Program-made: the position numbers and the translations under genes | DNA from: an uncultured virus (IMG/VR IMGVR_UViG_2236876025_000003) | Lineage: Duplodnaviria > Heunggongvirae > Uroviricota > Caudoviricetes | IMG/VR virus record: IMGVR_UViG_2236876025_000003 | Reading direction: 5' to 3' (one strand) | DNA length: 64,000 bases | Shown: in pieces, positions 13,032 to 63,306 of the stretch | Position numbering within the stretch: position 1 is the first letter of the stretch | How the letters are laid out: every line of letters begins with the position of its first letter | Notes under the pieces: generated by a model | The model's database searches: none | What the model was told of the DNA's origin: nothing | The model's input: the letters and a program-made list of their open reading frames with translations, nothing else

Positions 13032-13892
13032 ATGATTTTTAATTGTAAAATATGCGGATTCAGCACTGATGACCCTAATGCATTTGCACAGCATATAAAG
13101 AAAGACCATCAGTTATCCATGAAAGGCTACTATGACCAATATCTTCGTAAAGAAGGCGAAGGCATCTGTCCAGTATGTGGAAAACCGACACAATATCTGA
13201 CCTTGACTAAAGGTTATAGGGAATATTGCAGCATAAAATGTGCAAATTCAGTCAGGCAGTCTTTAAAAACAGAAAAATATGCAGAACTTGAATGCAAGAT
13301 ATGTGGCAAAAAATTCGAAGGAACTGCACAGCAAGTAGGCGTCCAGTTTGCCAAACATCTAAAAGAACACAACATTTACGAGCCAAAGATATATTACGAT
13401 AAATATATCAGACAAGAAGGCGAAGGCGTCTGTCCGATTTGCGGAAAAGAAACGACATTCTATAGCATCCTTAGAGGTTATGACACATATTGTTGCTCGA
13501 AATGCGCCGGCGCAGCATTAAAGAACAATAGCGAATCACAACAGAGCAAATTGCACAAGCTAGTGGAATTCAAAGAGACATTAAAAAACATCGGCTCGTC
13601 AATAATCGCAAAGTATAAAAATTTTATCGCTAACGACAGAAAGCCAAAATGGTCAGACATAAGAACGAATCCGATAACGCATAATACTATTTCTACAGAA
13701 GCGGCATATCTCGACGAGAATAACAAGCCGTATATGGTAAAGACTGAAATTTCATGCAGTACCGAAAGAACGAACAATATCGGAAACCAGGTAAGATATG
13801 TGCCAAAACTTGAATCGTGCAACCAGGAATATAAGTTTGATGAAATAATCGACGACAATTCCAGGCTCGATGAAAATGAATGGTGTAATTAA
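13032..13892 (+). CDS. Tandem zinc-finger repeat protein
   Basis: Two copies of CKICG..H..H..YYD.Y...EGEG.CP.CGK..GY..YC..KCA. Confidence 0.7.
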   Translation: MIFNCKICGFSTDDPNAFAQHIKKDHQLSMKGYYDQYLRKEGEGICPVCGKPTQYLTLTKGYREYCSIKCANSVRQSLKTEKYAELECKICGKKFEGTAQQVGVQFAKHLKEHNIYEPKIYYDKYIRQEGEGVCPICGKETTFYSILRGYDTYCCSKCAGAALKNNSESQQSKLHKLVEFKETLKNIGSSIIAKYKNFIANDRKPKWSDIRTNPITHNTISTEAAYLDENNKPYMVKTEISCSTERTNNIGNQVRYVPKLESCNQEYKFDEIIDDNSRLDENEWCN

Positions 13893-35150: not shown

Positions 35151-35226
35151 AAAAAACGTAATCTTAAAGATTACGTTTTATTTTAATATTAAAAAACCTG
35201 ATTGTCAAAATCAGGTTTTATTTTTT
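35151..35226. terminator. Two tandem intrinsic terminators between convergent genes
   Basis: AAAACGTAATCT-taa-AGATTACGTTTT and AAAACCTGATT-gtcaa-AATCAGGTTTT. Confidence 0.8.
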
Positions 35227-36586
35227 ATTCCAATCCGAGCTTTTCAGCGTAATCGGCAATAGTGTCATTCTGGTCGTCAGTAAGAGCCCTGCCAGCACCG
35301 AGAAGTTTGTCATACATTCTCTGGAGTTCGCTCTTTGTCAACGTTCCCATACCGTTCAATGTCTCTTTGGCATACGTAATGAACGCATTATATGTTCCGT
35401 TGATATTTCGGTTCGCATCCGCGTTATTATTCCTGTTAACCAGCACGCGCTGCATCGGGTTCATTCGTCTCATCTTGATTTTTTCGATTAAGCCCGTTAC
35501 CGCCTTCGTAAACGATTCCTTGTCATAATACTTCAATACGTTACCGAACGAAGTACCGGCTTTGATGCCATAGATAGGTTTCTTCGTTTCTTTTGAAACC
35601 CTGAAGAACGCAGTGAAAATACCTCCGTCTGTACTTACGGCATATTTCTTTTCGAATCTGTCAGGGTCAATATCGTTTTGTGGAATGTCATTTACAGTGA
35701 CCTTGTTAACGCCTGGAATCTTAGTAAGCATATCAAGGAACTGTTCAGCTTCGGACTTTCCGCCAGTGAGTCGGATTTTCTCTGCTTCTTTTTTCGCCGC
35801 ACGCGTTGCCTGGTTCGATCCGGATTGACGTATAGACTTATATCCCTCTGTAGAATTAATAAGTTTCTGAGCACCTAATAACGCGATTATTTTACCGTCT
35901 ATACCAACTGCCTTGTTGAGTTTCTTCTTATTACCGGCAGCGTCAATTTCTACACTGAACGGCCAAGTGATTTCGGTATTGAACATCAAGTCTTCAGCGA
36001 TATCAGCATTGGCGTCGATAACGCAGTCGTCAGTTCCGCTAAGCTTAAGGAACTTTACTGTAAGATTATTGTTGTCGTCAAAACCGAGAGTCTTATATGT
36101 CTTACGGCCAACATCGTCGATGTTAAATTCCGGCGGCTGGTCAATCGGCGTAAATACAATCTTTATTTCGAGCTCGTCTGTAATATATTCAAGCTTGAAC
36201 TTTACGGATATGGTAATAGGCTTCAGTTCTACAAGAGCGCTATTCTCGTCAAATACGGCCTGAGAATCAAGTTCTACTTTACAATCCGTAAGTTTTGATT
36301 TCAGGTTTTCATAAATTTCGCCAATCTCGAAGAACGGAACTTCTTCCATTGCCTGGTTTACGGCGTCTTCAAGAAGCATAAATCTTGAAAGGTAGCTTCT
36401 AAATGTCTCATTTTTTATATCAGGCGTATTTCTGATTGTTTTCACCATATCGTACATGGTACGTAATTTTTCAGCCTTTGCAATATCGTCCGCGAAGAAA
36501 GCGTCGCTAATTTCCTGACGGCATTCCAATAGCCACTGGTCGACTTCTTCGGGACTCATATTTTTCGGGTCTACATCATAGTTCAT
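35225..36586 (-). CDS. Hypothetical late protein
   Basis: 453-aa ORF; TATTTATA 36611-36618 and AAGGA SD. Confidence 0.6.
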   Translation of the reverse strand: MNYDVDPKNMSPEEVDQWLLECRQEISDAFFADDIAKAEKLRTMYDMVKTIRNTPDIKNETFRSYLSRFMLLEDAVNQAMEEVPFFEIGEIYENLKSKLTDCKVELDSQAVFDENSALVELKPITISVKFKLEYITDELEIKIVFTPIDQPPEFNIDDVGRKTYKTLGFDDNNNLTVKFLKLSGTDDCVIDANADIAEDLMFNTEITWPFSVEIDAAGNKKKLNKAVGIDGKIIALLGAQKLINSTEGYKSIRQSGSNQATRAAKKEAEKIRLTGGKSEAEQFLDMLTKIPGVNKVTVNDIPQNDIDPDRFEKKYAVSTDGGIFTAFFRVSKETKKPIYGIKAGTSFGNVLKYYDKESFTKAVTGLIEKIKMRRMNPMQRVLVNRNNNADANRNINGTYNAFITYAKETLNGMGTLTKSELQRMYDKLLGAGRALTDDQNDTIADYAEKLGLE

Positions 36587-36675
36587 AATAGATTCCTTAT
36601 TCGTTTATATTATTTATAGCGTTTTACAAGGCATAATGTTATAAATATATAAGTCTAAATAAAAAGGTAGTCTAT

Positions 36676-36978
36676 ATGTTTATCAAATGCGGTGACGAGT
36701 TTTTAAAATTTAAAGGCTTTAGTAAAAAGCTGTCTGAATCACTGGATATAGTTTTCGATAATTCGAGGCTTAAGTGTTCTGTCGACCATCGTTTCAAAGA
36801 CGAGAATGGCCAGGATATTTTTGCAAAAGACCTGCAAAAGGGCGACAGGGTTAAAAACACGCAATTCGGTTACAGCACGGTTGTCCAGGTAACGCCTATA
36901 GGTAAATATCCGGTATTTACGCCAGTCAACGTAGAAGGCGGCTTATACGAGACATTAAACGGCCTTATAAACCACAAT
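36676..36978 (+). mobile_element. C-intein fragment of an atypically split intein
   Basis: Block B-like CSVDHRF, AKDLQKGD, block F VFTPVNVE, block G NGLINHN/C; block A absent. Confidence 0.85.
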
Positions 36979-37734
36979 TGTTCATTTATCGGCTCTAGCC
37001 CTACGTTGGTAAAGGGTGACATTCTTGAAAAGCTGACAGAAAAAGAACCGGTCGAAGTGCTTTATGACGACTTGTCACTTTCGATTTATGAAAAACCGAT
37101 ACCGAATGCGCTTTATGTAATGGGTGTAGACTGCGCTACCGGTGTAGGTAACGACTATTGCGTTGTCCAAGTTGTAAAGATCGTATCTAAAACGGAAATG
37201 TATCAGGTCGCATGCTATCGCTCAAACGAAGTAAAGCAAGGCGAATTTTCACGCATAATTGATGACCTGTCTAAAAAATACAATGACGCATACTTTTGTC
37301 TTGAAGCAAACGATACAGGTAAGACAATTGCGGAAGAGGTCTGGTATACTCTTGAAAACATGCACTTAATCAATACCGAAAAATCTTCCAGGGGATTAGG
37401 AACTATTGCAGACAAGCGTTCCAAGCTCGACGCGTGTATGGAACTGAAACGCGTAATGGATAATGAGTTCTTGCACGTATGCGATAGCAAGACAATTGAG
37501 GAACTTTCAAGATTCGAAGAACAGCGTGCTAACATCTTTGCCGCGGCAAAAGGAAATCATGACGATACAGTTTCAGCTTTATACTGGGCAATGTATGCCA
37601 CAATGCAACCAGAAATAGATATGGACAATATAAAGCAGATTACGAATGAAGAAAACGATACTAATCAGCTTACCGTTGATATGATGGTCAATGACATGGC
37701 AAACGATGACGATTTCTGGGGAGATTTCAAGTGA
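36676..37734 (+). CDS. terL: Terminase large subunit C-terminal (nuclease) half preceded by split-intein C-fragment
   Basis: Residues 1-101 end in HN followed by CSFIGSS; nuclease motifs GVDCATG, LEAN, GNHDD; no ATPase domain. Confidence 0.9.
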   Translation: MFIKCGDEFLKFKGFSKKLSESLDIVFDNSRLKCSVDHRFKDENGQDIFAKDLQKGDRVKNTQFGYSTVVQVTPIGKYPVFTPVNVEGGLYETLNGLINHNCSFIGSSPTLVKGDILEKLTEKEPVEVLYDDLSLSIYEKPIPNALYVMGVDCATGVGNDYCVVQVVKIVSKTEMYQVACYRSNEVKQGEFSRIIDDLSKKYNDAYFCLEANDTGKTIAEEVWYTLENMHLINTEKSSRGLGTIADKRSKLDACMELKRVMDNEFLHVCDSKTIEELSRFEEQRANIFAAAKGNHDDTVSALYWAMYATMQPEIDMDNIKQITNEENDTNQLTVDMMVNDMANDDDFWGDFK

Positions 37735-38375
37735 GTGATAAAGTATTATGGCGCTCATTAAAACCCAGATTTAATACGATGACGCCTGAAGATAGTAAAA
37801 AAGAAAACATCGGCACATTCCATAAGCATCTCGCGGATTCGCTTAATGAATGGTTTAATAGCTATTTTATTCCGAAGCAAAGATTTTCCGCCAGCGGTGT
37901 TCAATATATCCCGCCGGTTGAGGAAGTTACATGGGTAGAGCCTGCAAATCCGTTAAAATATTTCATGTTCGTAAATCAGGTCATGACTTTCACCAAGGCT
38001 GAATTATTGGCTGCATTTAAAGTTCCTGCGATGTGCTGGCAAAATCTGTTCGGCATTATAGGTATGAGAATATCCGCTACGTTAAGTTCGGTATATTGCA
38101 CGGTTCCTGGTTCTGCTGTCGTCGGAACTGTAACAGTTCCTTTCGTAACGGCGCATTATCGTATGCAAGCTGTTAAATTTCTGGCTGATATCAAGAAACT
38201 GGAATATACAGAGGACAATATAAAGTCTGGCAAAATAACAGAACAGATATGGGATAAATTTGAAGATAATTTAATAAGCGCTATCAATAATACGCCACCT
38301 ACTGTTATAATGGTCGGCGGCGCATTACCGCCGGGAACTTTTACAGGGACAATAAATGCGAAACTCAGTATATAA
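37731..38375 (+). CDS. Hypothetical protein
   Basis: GTG start overlapping the upstream TGA. Confidence 0.55.
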   Translation: MSDKVLWRSLKPRFNTMTPEDSKKENIGTFHKHLADSLNEWFNSYFIPKQRFSASGVQYIPPVEEVTWVEPANPLKYFMFVNQVMTFTKAELLAAFKVPAMCWQNLFGIIGMRISATLSSVYCTVPGSAVVGTVTVPFVTAHYRMQAVKFLADIKKLEYTEDNIKSGKITEQIWDKFEDNLISAINNTPPTVIMVGGALPPGTFTGTINAKLSI

Positions 38376-39309
38376 TTACGACCATTATAACTATTGGGAA
38401 ATGTACCCTGAAGAATTGCCGTCTAGAGGCATATTCTATAATAAAAATGCACGAATAAAAGTGCGAACCATGTCTGTTCTCGAAGTAAAATTTTTAGCTA
38501 CGTATAAAGAGCAAACAGCTACCCGTATATGTAACGAAATAATTAACAAGTGCACTATTTTAGAAAACTTGAAAATTGAAGATTTATTATTGCCTGACAG
38601 GGATTATATAATTTTCTGGATTAGGCTTAATACATTCAATACTTCTAACGGGTTTACTATAAACATTCCTCGTTGCTCTACTTGTGAATCACCTATAAGC
38701 ACTGAAATTTCATTAAACGATATCACATATAGGTATCTTGATAATGGTTTTGTGCCAGAAGTTCATTTACCTGATTTAAATACAACTATTCCTGTAAAGA
38801 TTCCAAAATATGGCGACTCGATTTACAATGTAGAAAATGAACTTGAAGATATCGCGTTGAGAATAGATACCGATAATACGTTCGACGATAAAATCAGGTT
38901 CGTTTCGTCATTGACCGCGCTTGACTATATACATCTGAAAGACCATATTAAACAATATGGTTGCGGCATAAATGATGAAATTATAGTTCCTTGCAAGATT
39001 TGCGGAACACAGCATAATGTAAAGATGATAATCAACGACACGAACATTTTTACACAAATAGAGCTTAGGGATATTCTCGAGAAGATTACAAGAATAGCCA
39101 AGTATTCCAATCTGACTATAACAAATGACTGGTCTTGGGTAGAGGTAGAACTCGAACAGCAGATTATCAACGAGATGATTCGTGAAGAAAACCAGGAAAC
39201 CCAGCACCAGATTCAAGGTGTATCGTCTAAGATACCGGCCGCTACTGGAAACGGTGGAATGCCTAATATGCCAAGTATGCCAGGTCTTCCATCTTTACCG
39301 CATTTGTAA
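38356..39309 (+). CDS. Baseplate hub assembly protein (gp26-like), paralogue B
   Basis: ELPSRGIFY, DRDYIIFWIR, CSTC, CKICG. Confidence 0.7.
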   Translation: MRNSVYNYDHYNYWEMYPEELPSRGIFYNKNARIKVRTMSVLEVKFLATYKEQTATRICNEIINKCTILENLKIEDLLLPDRDYIIFWIRLNTFNTSNGFTINIPRCSTCESPISTEISLNDITYRYLDNGFVPEVHLPDLNTTIPVKIPKYGDSIYNVENELEDIALRIDTDNTFDDKIRFVSSLTALDYIHLKDHIKQYGCGINDEIIVPCKICGTQHNVKMIINDTNIFTQIELRDILEKITRIAKYSNLTITNDWSWVEVELEQQIINEMIREENQETQHQIQGVSSKIPAATGNGGMPNMPSMPGLPSLPHL

Positions 39310-39398
39310 AAAATTCAGAATAAAAGTTTGTAAATTTTTATTTACAATTATTTGCTATATTTTAATTATTGGAAAACTGAACATTTTTAAGGTTAACT

Positions 39399-39998
39399 AT
39401 GAAACAAGATAAAACAAGTGAAGGCTATATTTCAAATAAGTATTTACGTGAGCTTGTTGTCAAGTTTAATTCAATGAATATAAATGACAATGGTAAATGG
39501 TGTGATGCTTATGAAAAGAAGATGGATAAGAAAAATGCAAAAGGTAATATGAAAATCGATAAATACGAAGTATCGAAATCCTTTATCCATCGTAAAAAAC
39601 AACAGATTGCAGCTTTGCATACTAGATACGAGAATTTCAGTGACGAAGAACGCCGAGCGTTTGATGCTGAATTTGAAAAAGTAAAGAAAGACATTTGCGA
39701 AGCTTTCTTGAAAGTTATTGACGGGCGTATAATTTCATATAAGCTAGTCCAGACACCCGCATATGAAGAAATTGACGATATCAGACAGGAAGCGCTGATG
39801 TCCTTATTCACATATATAAACCGTTACGACGAAACGCGAAATACAAGTGCGTTCGCTTTCGTAACAGAACTTATATCTAACGCCATGAACGGATATCTTA
39901 AGAAAATGAACCAACGTAATGCCGTTCAGATTACAGGTCTCGATTTCTATGAAAACTTGAATACTATCGATGACATGTATGGCGAAGATAATGATTAA
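39399..39998 (+). CDS. Late-transcription sigma factor (gp55-like)
   Basis: YISNK, ICEAFLKV, DDIRQEAL, YINRYD, SAFAFVTELISNA; fits the many TATAAATA promoters. Confidence 0.8.
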   Translation: MKQDKTSEGYISNKYLRELVVKFNSMNINDNGKWCDAYEKKMDKKNAKGNMKIDKYEVSKSFIHRKKQQIAALHTRYENFSDEERRAFDAEFEKVKKDICEAFLKVIDGRIISYKLVQTPAYEEIDDIRQEALMSLFTYINRYDETRNTSAFAFVTELISNAMNGYLKKMNQRNAVQITGLDFYENLNTIDDMYGEDND

Positions 39999-60081: not shown

Positions 60082-63000
60082 ATGGAAGCATTCAAAAATT
60101 GTTATTATGATAGATTTCATAAGACAATATATTTGAAAGAACAACATACGAAAGGCTGGTCAAAGCATAAATATCAGCCGTGGTGTTATATAACGGACAC
60201 TACTGGTAAATCAAATATATTGGACATTTATAAGCGTCCGGTTATGCGATACGAGTACAAGGACAATACGGTCATTGAAGCTTTAAAGCAAAACCCGGAT
60301 ATGATTGTCGCTGAATCTGACTTAAAACCTGAAGTCAAGTTCATGCATGAAAGATACGATAAAGAAGACTTAAAAGTCGATATTGATGACTGGAATATAG
60401 GTCTATTCGATATCGAAGTCGCGGGATCATCGAAATTTTACGACACGCATTTAATTGAAATCCGCGACTTACAAAGAGGCAAATTCGAAAGAATTGAATT
60501 ATTTCTTTTTGATACAAAATATAAGAAAGAAGACTGGGAAGTTTTCGATATCGAGAAAAAATGCTGGGTTAAATACATAAATTCGTGTTTTGTATCTTAC
60601 GAATTCCCGGCGCCAGAAAAAGCCGACTGGCCAATTAACCTTATTTCTTTATATTCGACTAAGGATAAAAAATTATATACTTGGGGCACTAAGCCATATG
60701 ATGACTTAGATGAACCTATTGATAATTATTTGTATTGTAGAACTGAAGTTGACCTTGTACGCAATTTCATGAAATGGTTTGCAAGGCAAGATTTTGATAT
60801 GCTTTCTGGTTGGAACTCGGAAGCATACGATATTCCGTATATTTGTAATAGATGTGCTAAGTTAAGAAAAATTAATAATGTTCAGACTGAATGGGAATGC
60901 TGTTTAAGTCCGTTTAATAAGCTGCCAGAAAGACACGATATTAAAGATAGAAAGCTTGAAGATGTTGATCTTGGCGCTACTTTTACTGTTCCTGGTTTAT
61001 ATTTGATTGACTTCATGAAGTTATATAAGACGTTTGGCAACCATCCGCCTCTTCCGTCTTATTCATTGAACTATATCGCTGCACGAGAACTCAGCGACGG
61101 TAAATTAAAATATGAAGGCTCTATTAATGAAGTCTATAAAGATCAATGGTGTAAGTTTGTTCGATATAACAGAAAGGACGTTACCATTCTGGTTGACCTG
61201 TTCTATAAGCTTAAACTGTTCGAACTTATTATTGAATACGCATTTAACTGTATAGTTACCGTCGACCGTGTAGAAAATAAAGTTCCTACGACGACTGGTT
61301 ATTTTATTAAGTTCCTCCATGCTACTGGACGTGTGCTTAACGATAAGAAAGAAGAACATATCGACTGGTGGACTAGAGAAGAATGCTATAAGGTAAAACA
61401 AAAAGACGGCACGATTTACTATCAGAATACTGAATGGGAAGATAACGTAGAATTTAAGAAATATCTTCTTAAATATGACATGTATAAATGCTTGAAGACT
61501 GAAGAAGAAATCAAGCCAGAAGTTTTAAGTATTTGGAAGCCGAAGAAAATAAACGGTGTTCAATATAATGCATGGCAAGTATTTAAACGAGATTTAGAAT
61601 TATTTAAGGATTGGCCGCATCCGTTCCCTGAATTCCAGGTTAAGGCTGGATATTGCTATGACTATCCGGGTAGATTCGATGACGATATGTCGTTCGATAT
61701 TACCTCGTCATATCCACATCATATCATGATGTTCAACATGTCTCCGGAAACTAAGGTTATCCGTCCTACTCGTTCTCAGATTGAATCTGGCGAAGTCATT
61801 ATGACAGACGTAGCAGAAGTCGGATTCTTAAGAACTGACGACGCGATTATGCCTAATGTCATTAAGCAAGTCTTTAATGAAAGAAAAGTTTGGAAAAAGA
61901 AAGAAGAAGAAGCTATTGAAGCTGGCGATAAGGAAATGGAAAATCTTTGTCATAACCGGCAACAGATTAAGAAACTTATCATTAACAGTATGTATGGCGT
62001 TTCGCTTGCACCTGGCTTCCATTTCTATGACCCGGATATCGCACGTTGTATTTGTCGTTGTGCCCGTGTAACTCTTCGTGACTGGCTGTCTCGTTACTGT
62101 AACGAATATTACGTTTCTACAAAGATAATCAGAGATATCGAAAAGTATTTCAATATCACTCTTAAGAATAAGGCACCGTTAAAACTCACGAACCGTGACT
62201 TCGCAATTGTCCATAATGATACTGACTCGTGCTATATCTGTGTTCATGAACTTAGACAGAGACTTATCGAAGAAGGCGTTTATTCTAACAGGAAAACAAA
62301 ACCTTTGCTTTACCCGGAAGACGGAATGTCTGACGAACAGCTTGCTGAAATGCACAAGAAGAATCGTGAAATCATGGACTACAACAAAACCGTAGCCGAT
62401 GAATATAGAGATTTCTTTAGCCATGCTGAAGCTATGTTCCAGGATTTCTTTAATCAGGTACTTGAAATCAGGGCAAAGAAGTCAAAGGTAAACCAGCTTA
62501 TCAAGTTCAACCGTGAAAACATCTTTAGCAACATGTTCTGTTTCGCGAAGAAGTTATATATCGGTTCAGTTGTAGACAGTGAAGGCGCATTATATCCGTT
62601 AGAAGGCATCGATAAGGAAGTTCTTACCGACGAAGAAAAAGCAACATTGCCTAAATCTATGTTGAAGCATCCGGAAGGACCTAAACATAAAATCATGGGC
62701 GTTCCTATCAAAAAGTCCACGATGCCTGACTTCTGTAAAATCGCAGCAGAAAAACTTGCATTTGACATTTCCGCTGGTATGACCAAAGAAGACGCCGATG
62801 ATTTTATTATGAAGGTCTACGAACAATACCGTAATAGCGATATTAACGATATATCGGCCGTCATTGGTATTTCCAACTATAAGAAATACATTCCGCACGA
62901 TATAGATTATTACGTAAAAAACGGCCTTGAGTTCGAAAAGGGCAAAAACGCGTCCGTTATTTTCGGCGCGAAAGCTGCATTGACGTATAACTACATCTTG

Positions 63001-63306
63001 GCGAAAAAGAAATTTAAGTTGACGCCGATTCAGAATAACTCCAAGATGAAATACATCTACGTAAAGCCGAATAACGAATTCAAATACAAGAATCTGGACA
63101 AGCATACGATTGAGCCGGTGACATTTGTCGCTTTCGTTGACCAATGGCCGAAAGAATTCGATTCGCTTTTTGAAATCGACCACGAGACTATGTTCAGAAA
63201 GTCATTCTGTGCATTGTTCGAGTCAATGTATGAAATCAATAAGTGGCTAGAACCTGGTAAACATCTTACCTTGGAAAAATCAACGCTTTGCGACTTATTT
63301 TGCTAA
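60082..63306 (+). CDS. Family B DNA polymerase (gp43-like)
   Basis: ExoI FDIEV, ExoII GWNSEAYDIPY, ExoIII YNRKD, motif A DITSSYP, motif B KLIINSMYG, motif C NDTDS, KKLY. Confidence 0.95.
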   Translation: MEAFKNCYYDRFHKTIYLKEQHTKGWSKHKYQPWCYITDTTGKSNILDIYKRPVMRYEYKDNTVIEALKQNPDMIVAESDLKPEVKFMHERYDKEDLKVDIDDWNIGLFDIEVAGSSKFYDTHLIEIRDLQRGKFERIELFLFDTKYKKEDWEVFDIEKKCWVKYINSCFVSYEFPAPEKADWPINLISLYSTKDKKLYTWGTKPYDDLDEPIDNYLYCRTEVDLVRNFMKWFARQDFDMLSGWNSEAYDIPYICNRCAKLRKINNVQTEWECCLSPFNKLPERHDIKDRKLEDVDLGATFTVPGLYLIDFMKLYKTFGNHPPLPSYSLNYIAARELSDGKLKYEGSINEVYKDQWCKFVRYNRKDVTILVDLFYKLKLFELIIEYAFNCIVTVDRVENKVPTTTGYFIKFLHATGRVLNDKKEEHIDWWTREECYKVKQKDGTIYYQNTEWEDNVEFKKYLLKYDMYKCLKTEEEIKPEVLSIWKPKKINGVQYNAWQVFKRDLELFKDWPHPFPEFQVKAGYCYDYPGRFDDDMSFDITSSYPHHIMMFNMSPETKVIRPTRSQIESGEVIMTDVAEVGFLRTDDAIMPNVIKQVFNERKVWKKKEEEAIEAGDKEMENLCHNRQQIKKLIINSMYGVSLAPGFHFYDPDIARCICRCARVTLRDWLSRYCNEYYVSTKIIRDIEKYFNITLKNKAPLKLTNRDFAIVHNDTDSCYICVHELRQRLIEEGVYSNRKTKPLLYPEDGMSDEQLAEMHKKNREIMDYNKTVADEYRDFFSHAEAMFQDFFNQVLEIRAKKSKVNQLIKFNRENIFSNMFCFAKKLYIGSVVDSEGALYPLEGIDKEVLTDEEKATLPKSMLKHPEGPKHKIMGVPIKKSTMPDFCKIAAEKLAFDISAGMTKEDADDFIMKVYEQYRNSDINDISAVIGISNYKKYIPHDIDYYVKNGLEFEKGKNASVIFGAKAALTYNYILAKKKFKLTPIQNNSKMKYIYVKPNNEFKYKNLDKHTIEPVTFVAFVDQWPKEFDSLFEIDHETMFRKSFCALFESMYEINKWLEPGKHLTLEKSTLCDLFC

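Follow-up and report, generated by a model that had tools for sequence, protein, structure and literature searches.

Several inteins inserted in gp17-type large terminases (TerL) are known in an atypically split form. Parts of a 2025 review describe AceL-TerL, with an N-terminal intein fragment (IntN) of 25 amino acids (aa), GOS-TerL, with an IntN of 37 aa and the residues Ser1 and Cys+1, and the consensus intein Cat, with fragments of 30 and 104 aa, as active atypical split inteins. In the same parts, the IntN of Cat is disordered and folds onto a partly folded C-terminal fragment (IntC). In sections of Dassa et al. 2009 (PMC2677866), 'fractured genes' are described as split-intein halves separated by a free-standing endonuclease. 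These sections also report a gp17-like terminase 'fractured at an unusual point', whose 122-residue C-terminal part holds all motifs except N1, and place the halves of cyanobacterial dnaE in separate loci. Here, a related arrangement is described for a 64,000-nucleotide (nt) stretch of the IMG/VR record IMGVR_UViG_2236876025_000003, referred to as the window. The full record is 71,625 bp long and is rated 18% complete. As judged from its sequence, the open reading frame (ORF) at 36676-37734 of the window encodes an IntC followed by a gp17-type nuclease, and its product is very probably ligated by protein trans-splicing to a separate, IntN-tagged ATPase half.

The ORF, designated the C-half, is located at 36676..37734 on the plus strand and encodes 352 aa. 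The start codon ATG at 36676 is preceded, 8 nt upstream, by the ribosome-binding-like stretch AAAGG. The open frame comprises 365 aa, as 13 codons are open 5' of the ATG, and an in-frame TAA closes it, making an N-terminal extension of the C-half impossible. The gene contains or is directly preceded by the following features.

36634..36636, plus strand: in-frame TAA that closes the frame 13 codons before the C-half start, from the ORF and its translation.
36640..36647, plus strand: TATAAATA, a T4-type late-promoter-like motif 28 nt 5' of the C-half ATG, from a motif count; an exact copy is present within 120 nt upstream in 21 of 22 related loci.
36676..36978, plus strand: IntC, the predicted 101-aa C-terminal fragment of an atypically split intein, from a PDB profile, predicted fold, invariant residues and selection.
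36775-36789, plus strand: block B of IntC, C34-S35-V36-D37-H38, from translation.
36973-36978, plus strand: terminal H100-N101 of IntC, from translation.
36979..36981, plus strand: Cys+1 (C102), the first C-extein residue and predicted trans-esterification nucleophile, invariant in 10 of 10 aligned sequences and 22 of 22 loci.
36979..37734, plus strand: C-extein of 251 aa that opens with the hinge motif CSFIGSS, continues as the RNase H-like nuclease of a large terminase of the T4 gp17 type and is followed by TGA, from Pfam and gp17 alignment.
37120-37593, plus strand: Pfam nuclease match (Terminase_6C) inside the C-extein.

A first-pass annotation of this DNA, made from the letters and an ORF list, had described a stand-alone gene with its own late promoter at 36640-36647, the TAA at 36634-36636 and a divergent neighbour, and both the ORF list and the motif count agree. 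The start of the gene was misplaced in that annotation: it was set at 36611, and positions 36611-36618 are a minus-strand promoter motif of the divergent gene.

Residues 1-101 of the C-half are the larger C-terminal piece of an intein without its first ~35 residues (block A). The sequence CSVDHRF spans residues 34-40, and HN/C spans residues 100-102 (codons 36973-36981); no Cys/Ser-1 block A occurs in the C-half translation. The first-pass annotation had already assigned block B and the HN/C junction to these residues and noted that block A was missing, in accord with the translation and with the CatC and HINT matches. Residues 1-101 alone match only the engineered CatC chain of PDB 6DSL (6dsl_B; E-value 0.0023) and align with CatC positions 19-114. 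An alignment of 10 IntC relatives (A1) was used as a profile against the PDB. The profile matches CatC at 1.4e-5, gp41-1 at 0.0056 and 0.02, Spl DnaX at 0.013, and VidaL at 0.16, so that five of five PDB matches are inteins.

Residues 1-111 are modelled by AlphaFold as all-beta, with a mean predicted local distance difference test (pLDDT) score of 70.8 and disorder at residues 88-111. The disordered end fits the 'partially folded IntC' of Cat. In a Foldseek search of the model against the PDB, ranks 1-15 are all inteins, and intein/HINT-type domains occur nearly throughout the matches listed. Cat (6dsl_B) has the highest template modelling (TM) score to the target, with values of 0.61 for the query (TMq) and 0.58 for the target (TMt) at 26% identity. 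On this model, IntC is predicted to have a HINT fold.

The C-extein runs from CSFIGSS into the RNase H-like nuclease of TerL, as the first-pass annotation had recognized from the letters, and this is corroborated by Terminase_6C and the gp17 alignment. Terminase_6C covers C-half residues 149-306 with an E-value of 5.5e-13 in Pfam, and the C-half from residue 99 aligns with T4 gp17 (3ezk) with an E-value of 4.4e-19. D152, E210, and D297, which lie in the motifs GVD, LEAN, and HDD, fall on D401, E458, and D542 of gp17. These three gp17 residues are the catalytic acids of the nuclease. By this alignment, the nuclease domain is of the T4 gp17 RNase H-like type with its catalytic acids intact.

The ATPase half was located in relatives of the window. 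No Terminase_6N match is present anywhere in the 71,625-bp record, in line with the remark of the first-pass annotation that no ATPase gene is recognizable nearby; because the record is only 18% complete, this absence is uninformative. The C-half has relatives at 22 loci in viral contigs, with identities of 55-100%. Five related records contain both halves and are given below, with the N-to-C gap measured between the Pfam matches of the two halves.

G001: 424,163 bp with terminal repeats, 100% complete; gap of 54.0 kb, same strand.
G006: 415,750 bp with terminal repeats, 100% complete; gap of 59.3 kb, opposite strands.
G002: 411,059 bp, 98% complete; gap of 59.3 kb, opposite strands.
G003: 291,102 bp, 70% complete; gap of 59.3 kb, opposite strands.
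G007: 69,004 bp, 18% complete; gap of 46.0 kb, opposite strands.

The halves are 46-60 kb apart in all five records and on opposite strands in four of them. Each record has one ATPase ORF of 306-319 aa that ends in QEYA/CL..., then 35-36 residues and a stop codon. Such IntN-tagged ATPase ORFs are present in every related record large enough to contain them. A search with this ORF identified 19 N-half loci, and all 19 end in QEYA/CL..ITV..DGFLR followed by a stop. The IntN tail after QEYA starts with CL(L/T/A/D/C).., and G002, G003, and G007 share this ending. An ATPase ORF ending in a block-A fragment had been proposed as the thing to look for, and in the relatives it is found as QEYA-C plus 35-36 aa.

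An intact terL elsewhere in the genome, which the first-pass annotation had raised as the opposing outcome, was not seen in the two complete genomes. G001 and G006 each contain a single Terminase_6C match above cut-off, and hence one nuclease domain, so neither has an intact terL. A second G001 match (E-value 0.00127), which is below the cut-off, belongs to a 500-aa low-complexity protein with no terminase features by eye and was dismissed as noise. Among 2,409 candidates of 617-2000 aa, no fused or longer form was found at E ≤ 1e-10, which is weak evidence. Between 27.5 and 47.3 kb, the window and G001 are collinear, which places the expected N-half ~17 kb past the left end of the record. The remote position of the N-half is observed in the relatives and, from this collinearity, is expected for the genome of the window.

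The surroundings of the N-half vary. In G001 (L024), the gene order is N-half, a 132-aa ORF, and a gp21-like prohead protease (Peptidase_S77, E-value 3.1e-29). In G002 (L026), a protease-like gene precedes the N-half. Gene order and the relative strand of the halves differ between lineages, indicating that the region was rearranged more than once. In G006 only, a 335-aa ORF (L060:294-1301, plus strand) overlaps the start of the N-half gene. The ORF matches DUF7487 (E-value 8.3e-19), a zinc finger and, weakly, Phage_endo_I (0.0013), and may be a mobile nuclease inserted beside the N-half.

A likely cognate N-half of the window is found on the contig L038. Its 306-aa protein (P0001) matches the gp17 ATPase with an E-value of 1.3e-35 and contains the Walker A motif GRQCGKTT and the Walker B motif DLMLVDE. 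The L038 N-half is 93% identical to that of G001, and both are preceded by TATAAATA, which is located ~40 nt 5' of the N-half in L038. The contig shares its data-set prefix with L002, the C-half copy that is 100% identical. Run X3, which comes from the probable source sample of the window, includes a contig identical to L038:1-1700. In addition, run X6, from an independent study, contains near-identical L038 pieces and also the C-half. Concealment of an N-half in the window itself was considered and rejected, as a tblastx comparison of the window with the N-half loci of L038 and G001 gave 0 matches at E ≤ 1e-8.

A split of this kind would also be seen if a contig mis-join around 36600-36680, or a gene-calling error, had cut a normal terL, and the record is indeed a metagenomic fragment of low completeness. 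Such an artefact is exceedingly improbable in view of the conservation of the locus. The 22 C-half loci come from many assemblies and all share the start ATG, with a stop 1-13 codons upstream; the promoter motif is shared by 21. The hub gene directly follows the C-half in 20 of the 22 loci, and the other two end at a contig edge. A single contig of 5,593 bp, assembled in an independent study, covers 35800-38400 and crosses the junction with 22 substitutions and no gaps, which excludes the assembly break at 36600-36680 that the first-pass annotation had allowed for. The same split is present in G001 and G006, both of which have terminal repeats.

Most of the residues expected to carry out splicing are strictly conserved. 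C34, S35, D37, H38, H100, N101, and C102 do not vary among the 22 C-half loci or within A1. In an alignment of six IntN sequences (A2), C1 and the flanking residues Q-E-Y-A are invariant. The class-1 catalytic set consists of Cys/Ser1, (T/S)xxH in block B, Asp in block F, the terminal His-Asn, and Cys/Ser/Thr+1. Of this set, C1, S35-x-x-H38, H100-N101, and C102 are invariant, and the block-F Asp is replaced by an invariant T82-P83. Fragment length is fixed across the clade as well, IntN having 35-36 aa and IntC 100-102 aa.

We infer from these features that the two halves are spliced. Both genes would be transcribed late, each from its own promoter, and yield two precursors, ATPase(271)-IntN(35) and IntC(101)-nuclease(251). 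The short IntN would dock on a partly folded IntC, as described for Cat, and complete the HINT fold. A thioester would then form at Cys1 and be passed to Cys+1 (C102). Cyclization of Asn101 would free the intein pieces, and an S-to-N shift would create the peptide bond ...QEYA-CSFIGSS... at the hinge between the ATPase and the nuclease. The product would be a 522-aa (271 + 251) TerL that forms the packaging motor. Trans-splicing tolerates separated halves, because gene adjacency is not needed. The proposal of the first-pass annotation that the motor is assembled by trans-splicing from distant, separately encoded genes gains support from the relatives, in which the genes are 46-60 kb apart and the splicing itself is predicted.

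Several observations weigh against trans-splicing. Pfam intein models remain below threshold on the window IntC (0 families), and on the 10 relatives they give only sub-threshold matches, to PT-HINT at 0.0075 and Intein_splicing at 0.12. The IntN profile matches no solved intein in the PDB, its lone match being an unrelated ligase (E-value 0.8), because the fragment is too short. The window record has no N-half of its own, and L038 is a likely partner, assigned by shared sample and near-identity. In addition, the block-F Asp is absent. The clade has an invariant T82-P83-V84 (window 36919-36927) at block F, where Asp is present in Cat, MHG19, kaaroe, and Va1, as (Y/F)-D in Cat, MHG19, and Va1, and Glu-Pro is present in Vibrio phage 1.244.A. 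As the Asp is missing, the splicing chemistry may deviate or run slower, and the Thr-Pro may signal a variant chemistry.

The missing Asp would also be accommodated by a two-chain terminase without splicing, in which the intein fragments are only a tight docking module and no peptide bond is formed. Split-intein fragments are described in parts of the 2025 review as binding each other before any chemistry. Pure docking, however, would need none of Cys1, the S-x-D-H of block B, the terminal His-Asn, and Cys+1, all of which are invariant across lineages that have diverged to ~53-57% identity. Moreover, Cat, the nearest relative with a solved structure, and its parent inteins are presented in the same parts of the review as active trans-splicers. 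Docking without ligation is judged improbable.

A further point against obligate trans-splicing is the presence of an intein-less ATPase paralog in G001, G002, G003, and G006. The paralog comprises 263-308 aa, with intact Walker A and B motifs and no nuclease domain, and matches Terminase_6N at an E-value of 1.9e-16. It ends at or just past the hinge, for example with ...QEYAVEFIGSK and a stop in G006, and is absent from the window record. The copies are located as follows.

L027:1342-2268 in G001, minus strand: intein-less ATPase paralog.
L029:1492-2283 in G002, minus strand: intein-less ATPase paralog.
L028 in G003 and L063 in G006: intein-less ATPase paralogs.

Given this paralog, the nuclease half could have an alternative, non-covalent partner. 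The C-half might act with it or alone, IntC and IntN being decaying relics; the finding, in complete relatives, of another TerL-type ATPase that stops at the hinge, lacks an intein and keeps its Walker motifs intact is in keeping with such a scenario. The pattern of substitution speaks strongly against it. The proportion of nonsynonymous differences (pN) in IntC is 0.06 versus a synonymous proportion (pS) of 0.76 between the window and L003, and in IntN pN is 0.16-0.22 versus pS of 0.68-0.86 in eight more distant pairs. The values of the inteins are comparable to those of the exteins. By this measure, purifying selection acts on the two intein pieces as strongly as on the exteins. From G001 to G002, the identity to the window pair decreases from 97 to 54% for IntN, from 90 to 53% for IntC, from 93 to 71% for the N-extein, and from 88 to 58% for the C-extein. 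The four segments diverge in step across lineages, which fits a long vertical co-inheritance. All splice-junction residues are kept and the fragment lengths are fixed. Intein decay is unlikely, and the relic scenario as a whole is considered highly improbable. Trans-splicing of the two halves remains the preferred explanation.

The motif TATAAATA, which we take to be the T4 late-promoter consensus, is present 32 times in the window, a count that none of 100 shuffles reaches; the expectation is 11.35. Twenty-six of the 32 copies fall in the 80 nt preceding an ORF start on the same strand; these zones account for 4.5% of positions. From its excess and its placement, the motif behaves like a promoter element. 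A scan for sigma-70 promoters and terminators over 36300-39600 found no enrichment, with 16 promoter-like sites versus 11.5 ± 3.5 and two terminator-like sites versus 2.0. A 232-nt contig of one metatranscriptome run spans 36547-36778 with zero differences. The contig was not counted as proof of transcription, because RNA libraries can contain DNA and contigs are strandless, and no weight was given to the gaps in coverage in runs X10 and X15.

The genes and motifs flanking the C-half are as follows.

35225..36586, minus strand: divergent upstream neighbour ORF, from the ORF list.
36611..36618, minus strand: TATAAATA, the late-promoter-like motif of the divergent neighbour gene, 24 nt 5' of its start and outside the terminase gene.
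37731..39309, plus strand: two co-oriented downstream genes that overlap or abut the C-half, encoding a 214-aa protein and a 317-aa T4-type baseplate hub protein, from the ORF list and a family scan.

Overall, the window is that of a T4-like myovirus, encoding tail sheath, tube, portal, baseplate wedge and hub, and neck proteins. Further products include a RegA-like repressor, a clamp loader, a prohead protease, and a family-B polymerase. The polymerase (60082-63306, plus strand, 1,074 aa) matches its PHROG in two stretches, 17-426 and 528-1055. The ~100 residues between them are unexplained, and Pfam finds no intein there. A zinc-finger-rich ORF of 286 aa (13032-13892, plus strand) has a weak match to a PHROG homing-endonuclease family (E-value 6.3e-9), with no single stretch passing alone; Pfam gives zinc-finger matches only, all sub-threshold.

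Related inteins are widespread. In public genome and metagenome proteins, the IntC profile matches 859 of 1.84 billion cluster representatives at E ≤ 0.001. Among the best 150 of the 859, IntC lies in the first 25 residues and is followed by a TerL nuclease in 68, and 16 are short IntC-first fragments. Four more are IntC-first with no nuclease match, 39 have an internal IntC with a nuclease, and 23 have an internal IntC with none. The sub-clade of the window consists of 18 clusters, all of 347-354 aa and either unnamed or called 'hypothetical protein'. With residues 1-105 as query, tblastn identified 18 phage records, and IntC is at most 33% identical to the cultured-phage versions. Yersinia phage MHG19 has an N-half of 396 aa and a C-half of 368 aa, separated by a 236-aa GIY-YIG-like ORF. 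In Vibrio phages 1.244.A and Va1, the halves are adjacent and the endonuclease is fused. The insertion site in the window is that of 1.244.A and Va1, with a one-residue offset from MHG19. In Escherichia phage kaaroe (MN850574.1, Krischvirus; L064:1161-4272), TerL is split at another site, in the ATPase after ...YIDE/C. The split is made by an atypically split intein, whose N-side ORF (583 aa) also contains a long insert and is annotated as 'hypothetical protein'.

The mechanism is already known and widespread, being represented by AceL-, GOS-, and Cat-TerL and by the genes of Dassa et al. 2009 and common in metagenomic proteins. What is new is the dispersed layout conserved across a jumbo-phage clade, with no endonuclease recognizable beside the halves in the window or G001, together with a divergent intein lineage, as indicated by 26% identity to Cat. 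No publication on a phage split intein with distant halves was found, which is weak evidence that the layout is unpublished, as most subscription journals lie outside the search. The most likely origin of the dispersed layout is an adjacent 'fractured gene' that lost the homing endonuclease and was then separated by genome rearrangement.

A broader reading is offered tentatively. The whole ~0.4-Mb cattle-gut jumbo-phage clade might build its only packaging motor by obligate trans-splicing from genes of different late operons that are 46-60 kb apart and, in most lineages, on opposite strands. The intein might then be 'domesticated' and endonuclease-free, and its fixation old enough for lineages to have diverged to ~55% identity. 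As a mesophilic Cys1/Cys+1 lineage of its own among the atypical split inteins, it might dispense with the block-F Asp and be orthogonal to Cat, AceL, and GOS, which would make it the first published phage case with distant halves.

If a split intein rejoins the products, the only large-terminase gene of a phage can stay split in distant, separately transcribed genes, and the 'fractured gene' picture would then include, in giant phages, a dispersed final stage that is free of the endonuclease. For annotation, such genomes appear to lack a complete terminase. Engineering could draw on the clade for a graded series of natural atypical pairs of 35 aa and 101 aa, which are of animal-gut origin, are distant from Cat, AceL, and GOS and are candidate tools for ligation and labelling, possibly as orthogonal pairs.

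In comparison with T4 gp17 (PDB 3EZK, 3CPE, and 2O0H), the ATPase half (E-value 1.3e-35) and the nuclease half (E-value 4.4e-19) jointly span the protein, and the split halves retain both Walker motifs and all three nuclease acids. However, gp17 is a single polypeptide, whereas the window-type chain is broken at the hinge, where C102 is aligned to gp17 A354.

The closest split inteins are those of AceL-, GOS-, and Cat-TerL. The window shares with them a gp17-type large terminase as host, a long IntC in an ORF of its own, and homology to CatC, and the short IntN is found in the relatives and on the L038 contig. As far as the consulted parts of the sources describe them, block A stands alone on IntN in both types (25-37 aa in the natural inteins, 35 aa in the window type), and blocks B, F, and G are on a long IntC (104 aa in Cat, 122 aa in Dassa et al., 101 aa in the window). 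The two types differ in that IntC is only ~26% identical to CatC and in that the window type has Cys1/Cys+1 versus the Ser1/Cys+1 given for GOS-TerL in the review parts. In addition, block F contains Thr-Pro in place of Asp, and the source is a cattle-gut giant phage, as opposed to lake or ocean plankton.

The window type resembles the fractured genes, as outlined in the sections of Dassa et al. 2009, in that an essential phage gene is divided into two ORFs with split-intein halves. In MHG19, 1.244.A, and Va1, an IntN of ~33-37 aa likewise follows QE(H/ME/FE), and IntC ends in HN/C-x-F-x-G-(S/T) at the same hinge. The layout is different. In these phages and in those sections of Dassa et al., the halves are adjacent on one strand with a GIY-YIG-type endonuclease between them, free-standing or fused. 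In the window type, there is no adjacent same-strand pair with a homing-endonuclease gene between; the halves are 46-60 kb apart and belong to separate late clusters, the N-half beside the prohead protease (G001 and G002) and the C-half beside the baseplate hub. Family scans detected no endonuclease family in the flanks of the window C-half or in the ORF downstream of the G001 N-half.

In this dispersed layout, the window type resembles the natural cyanobacterial split DnaE intein, for which the sections of PMC2677866 describe host-gene halves in separate loci with no endonuclease between them. The DnaE intein differs in residing in a cellular genome and in another host protein. It is also split in the canonical manner, with a long IntN and a short IntC, and the window type is the inverse, with a short IntN and a long IntC.

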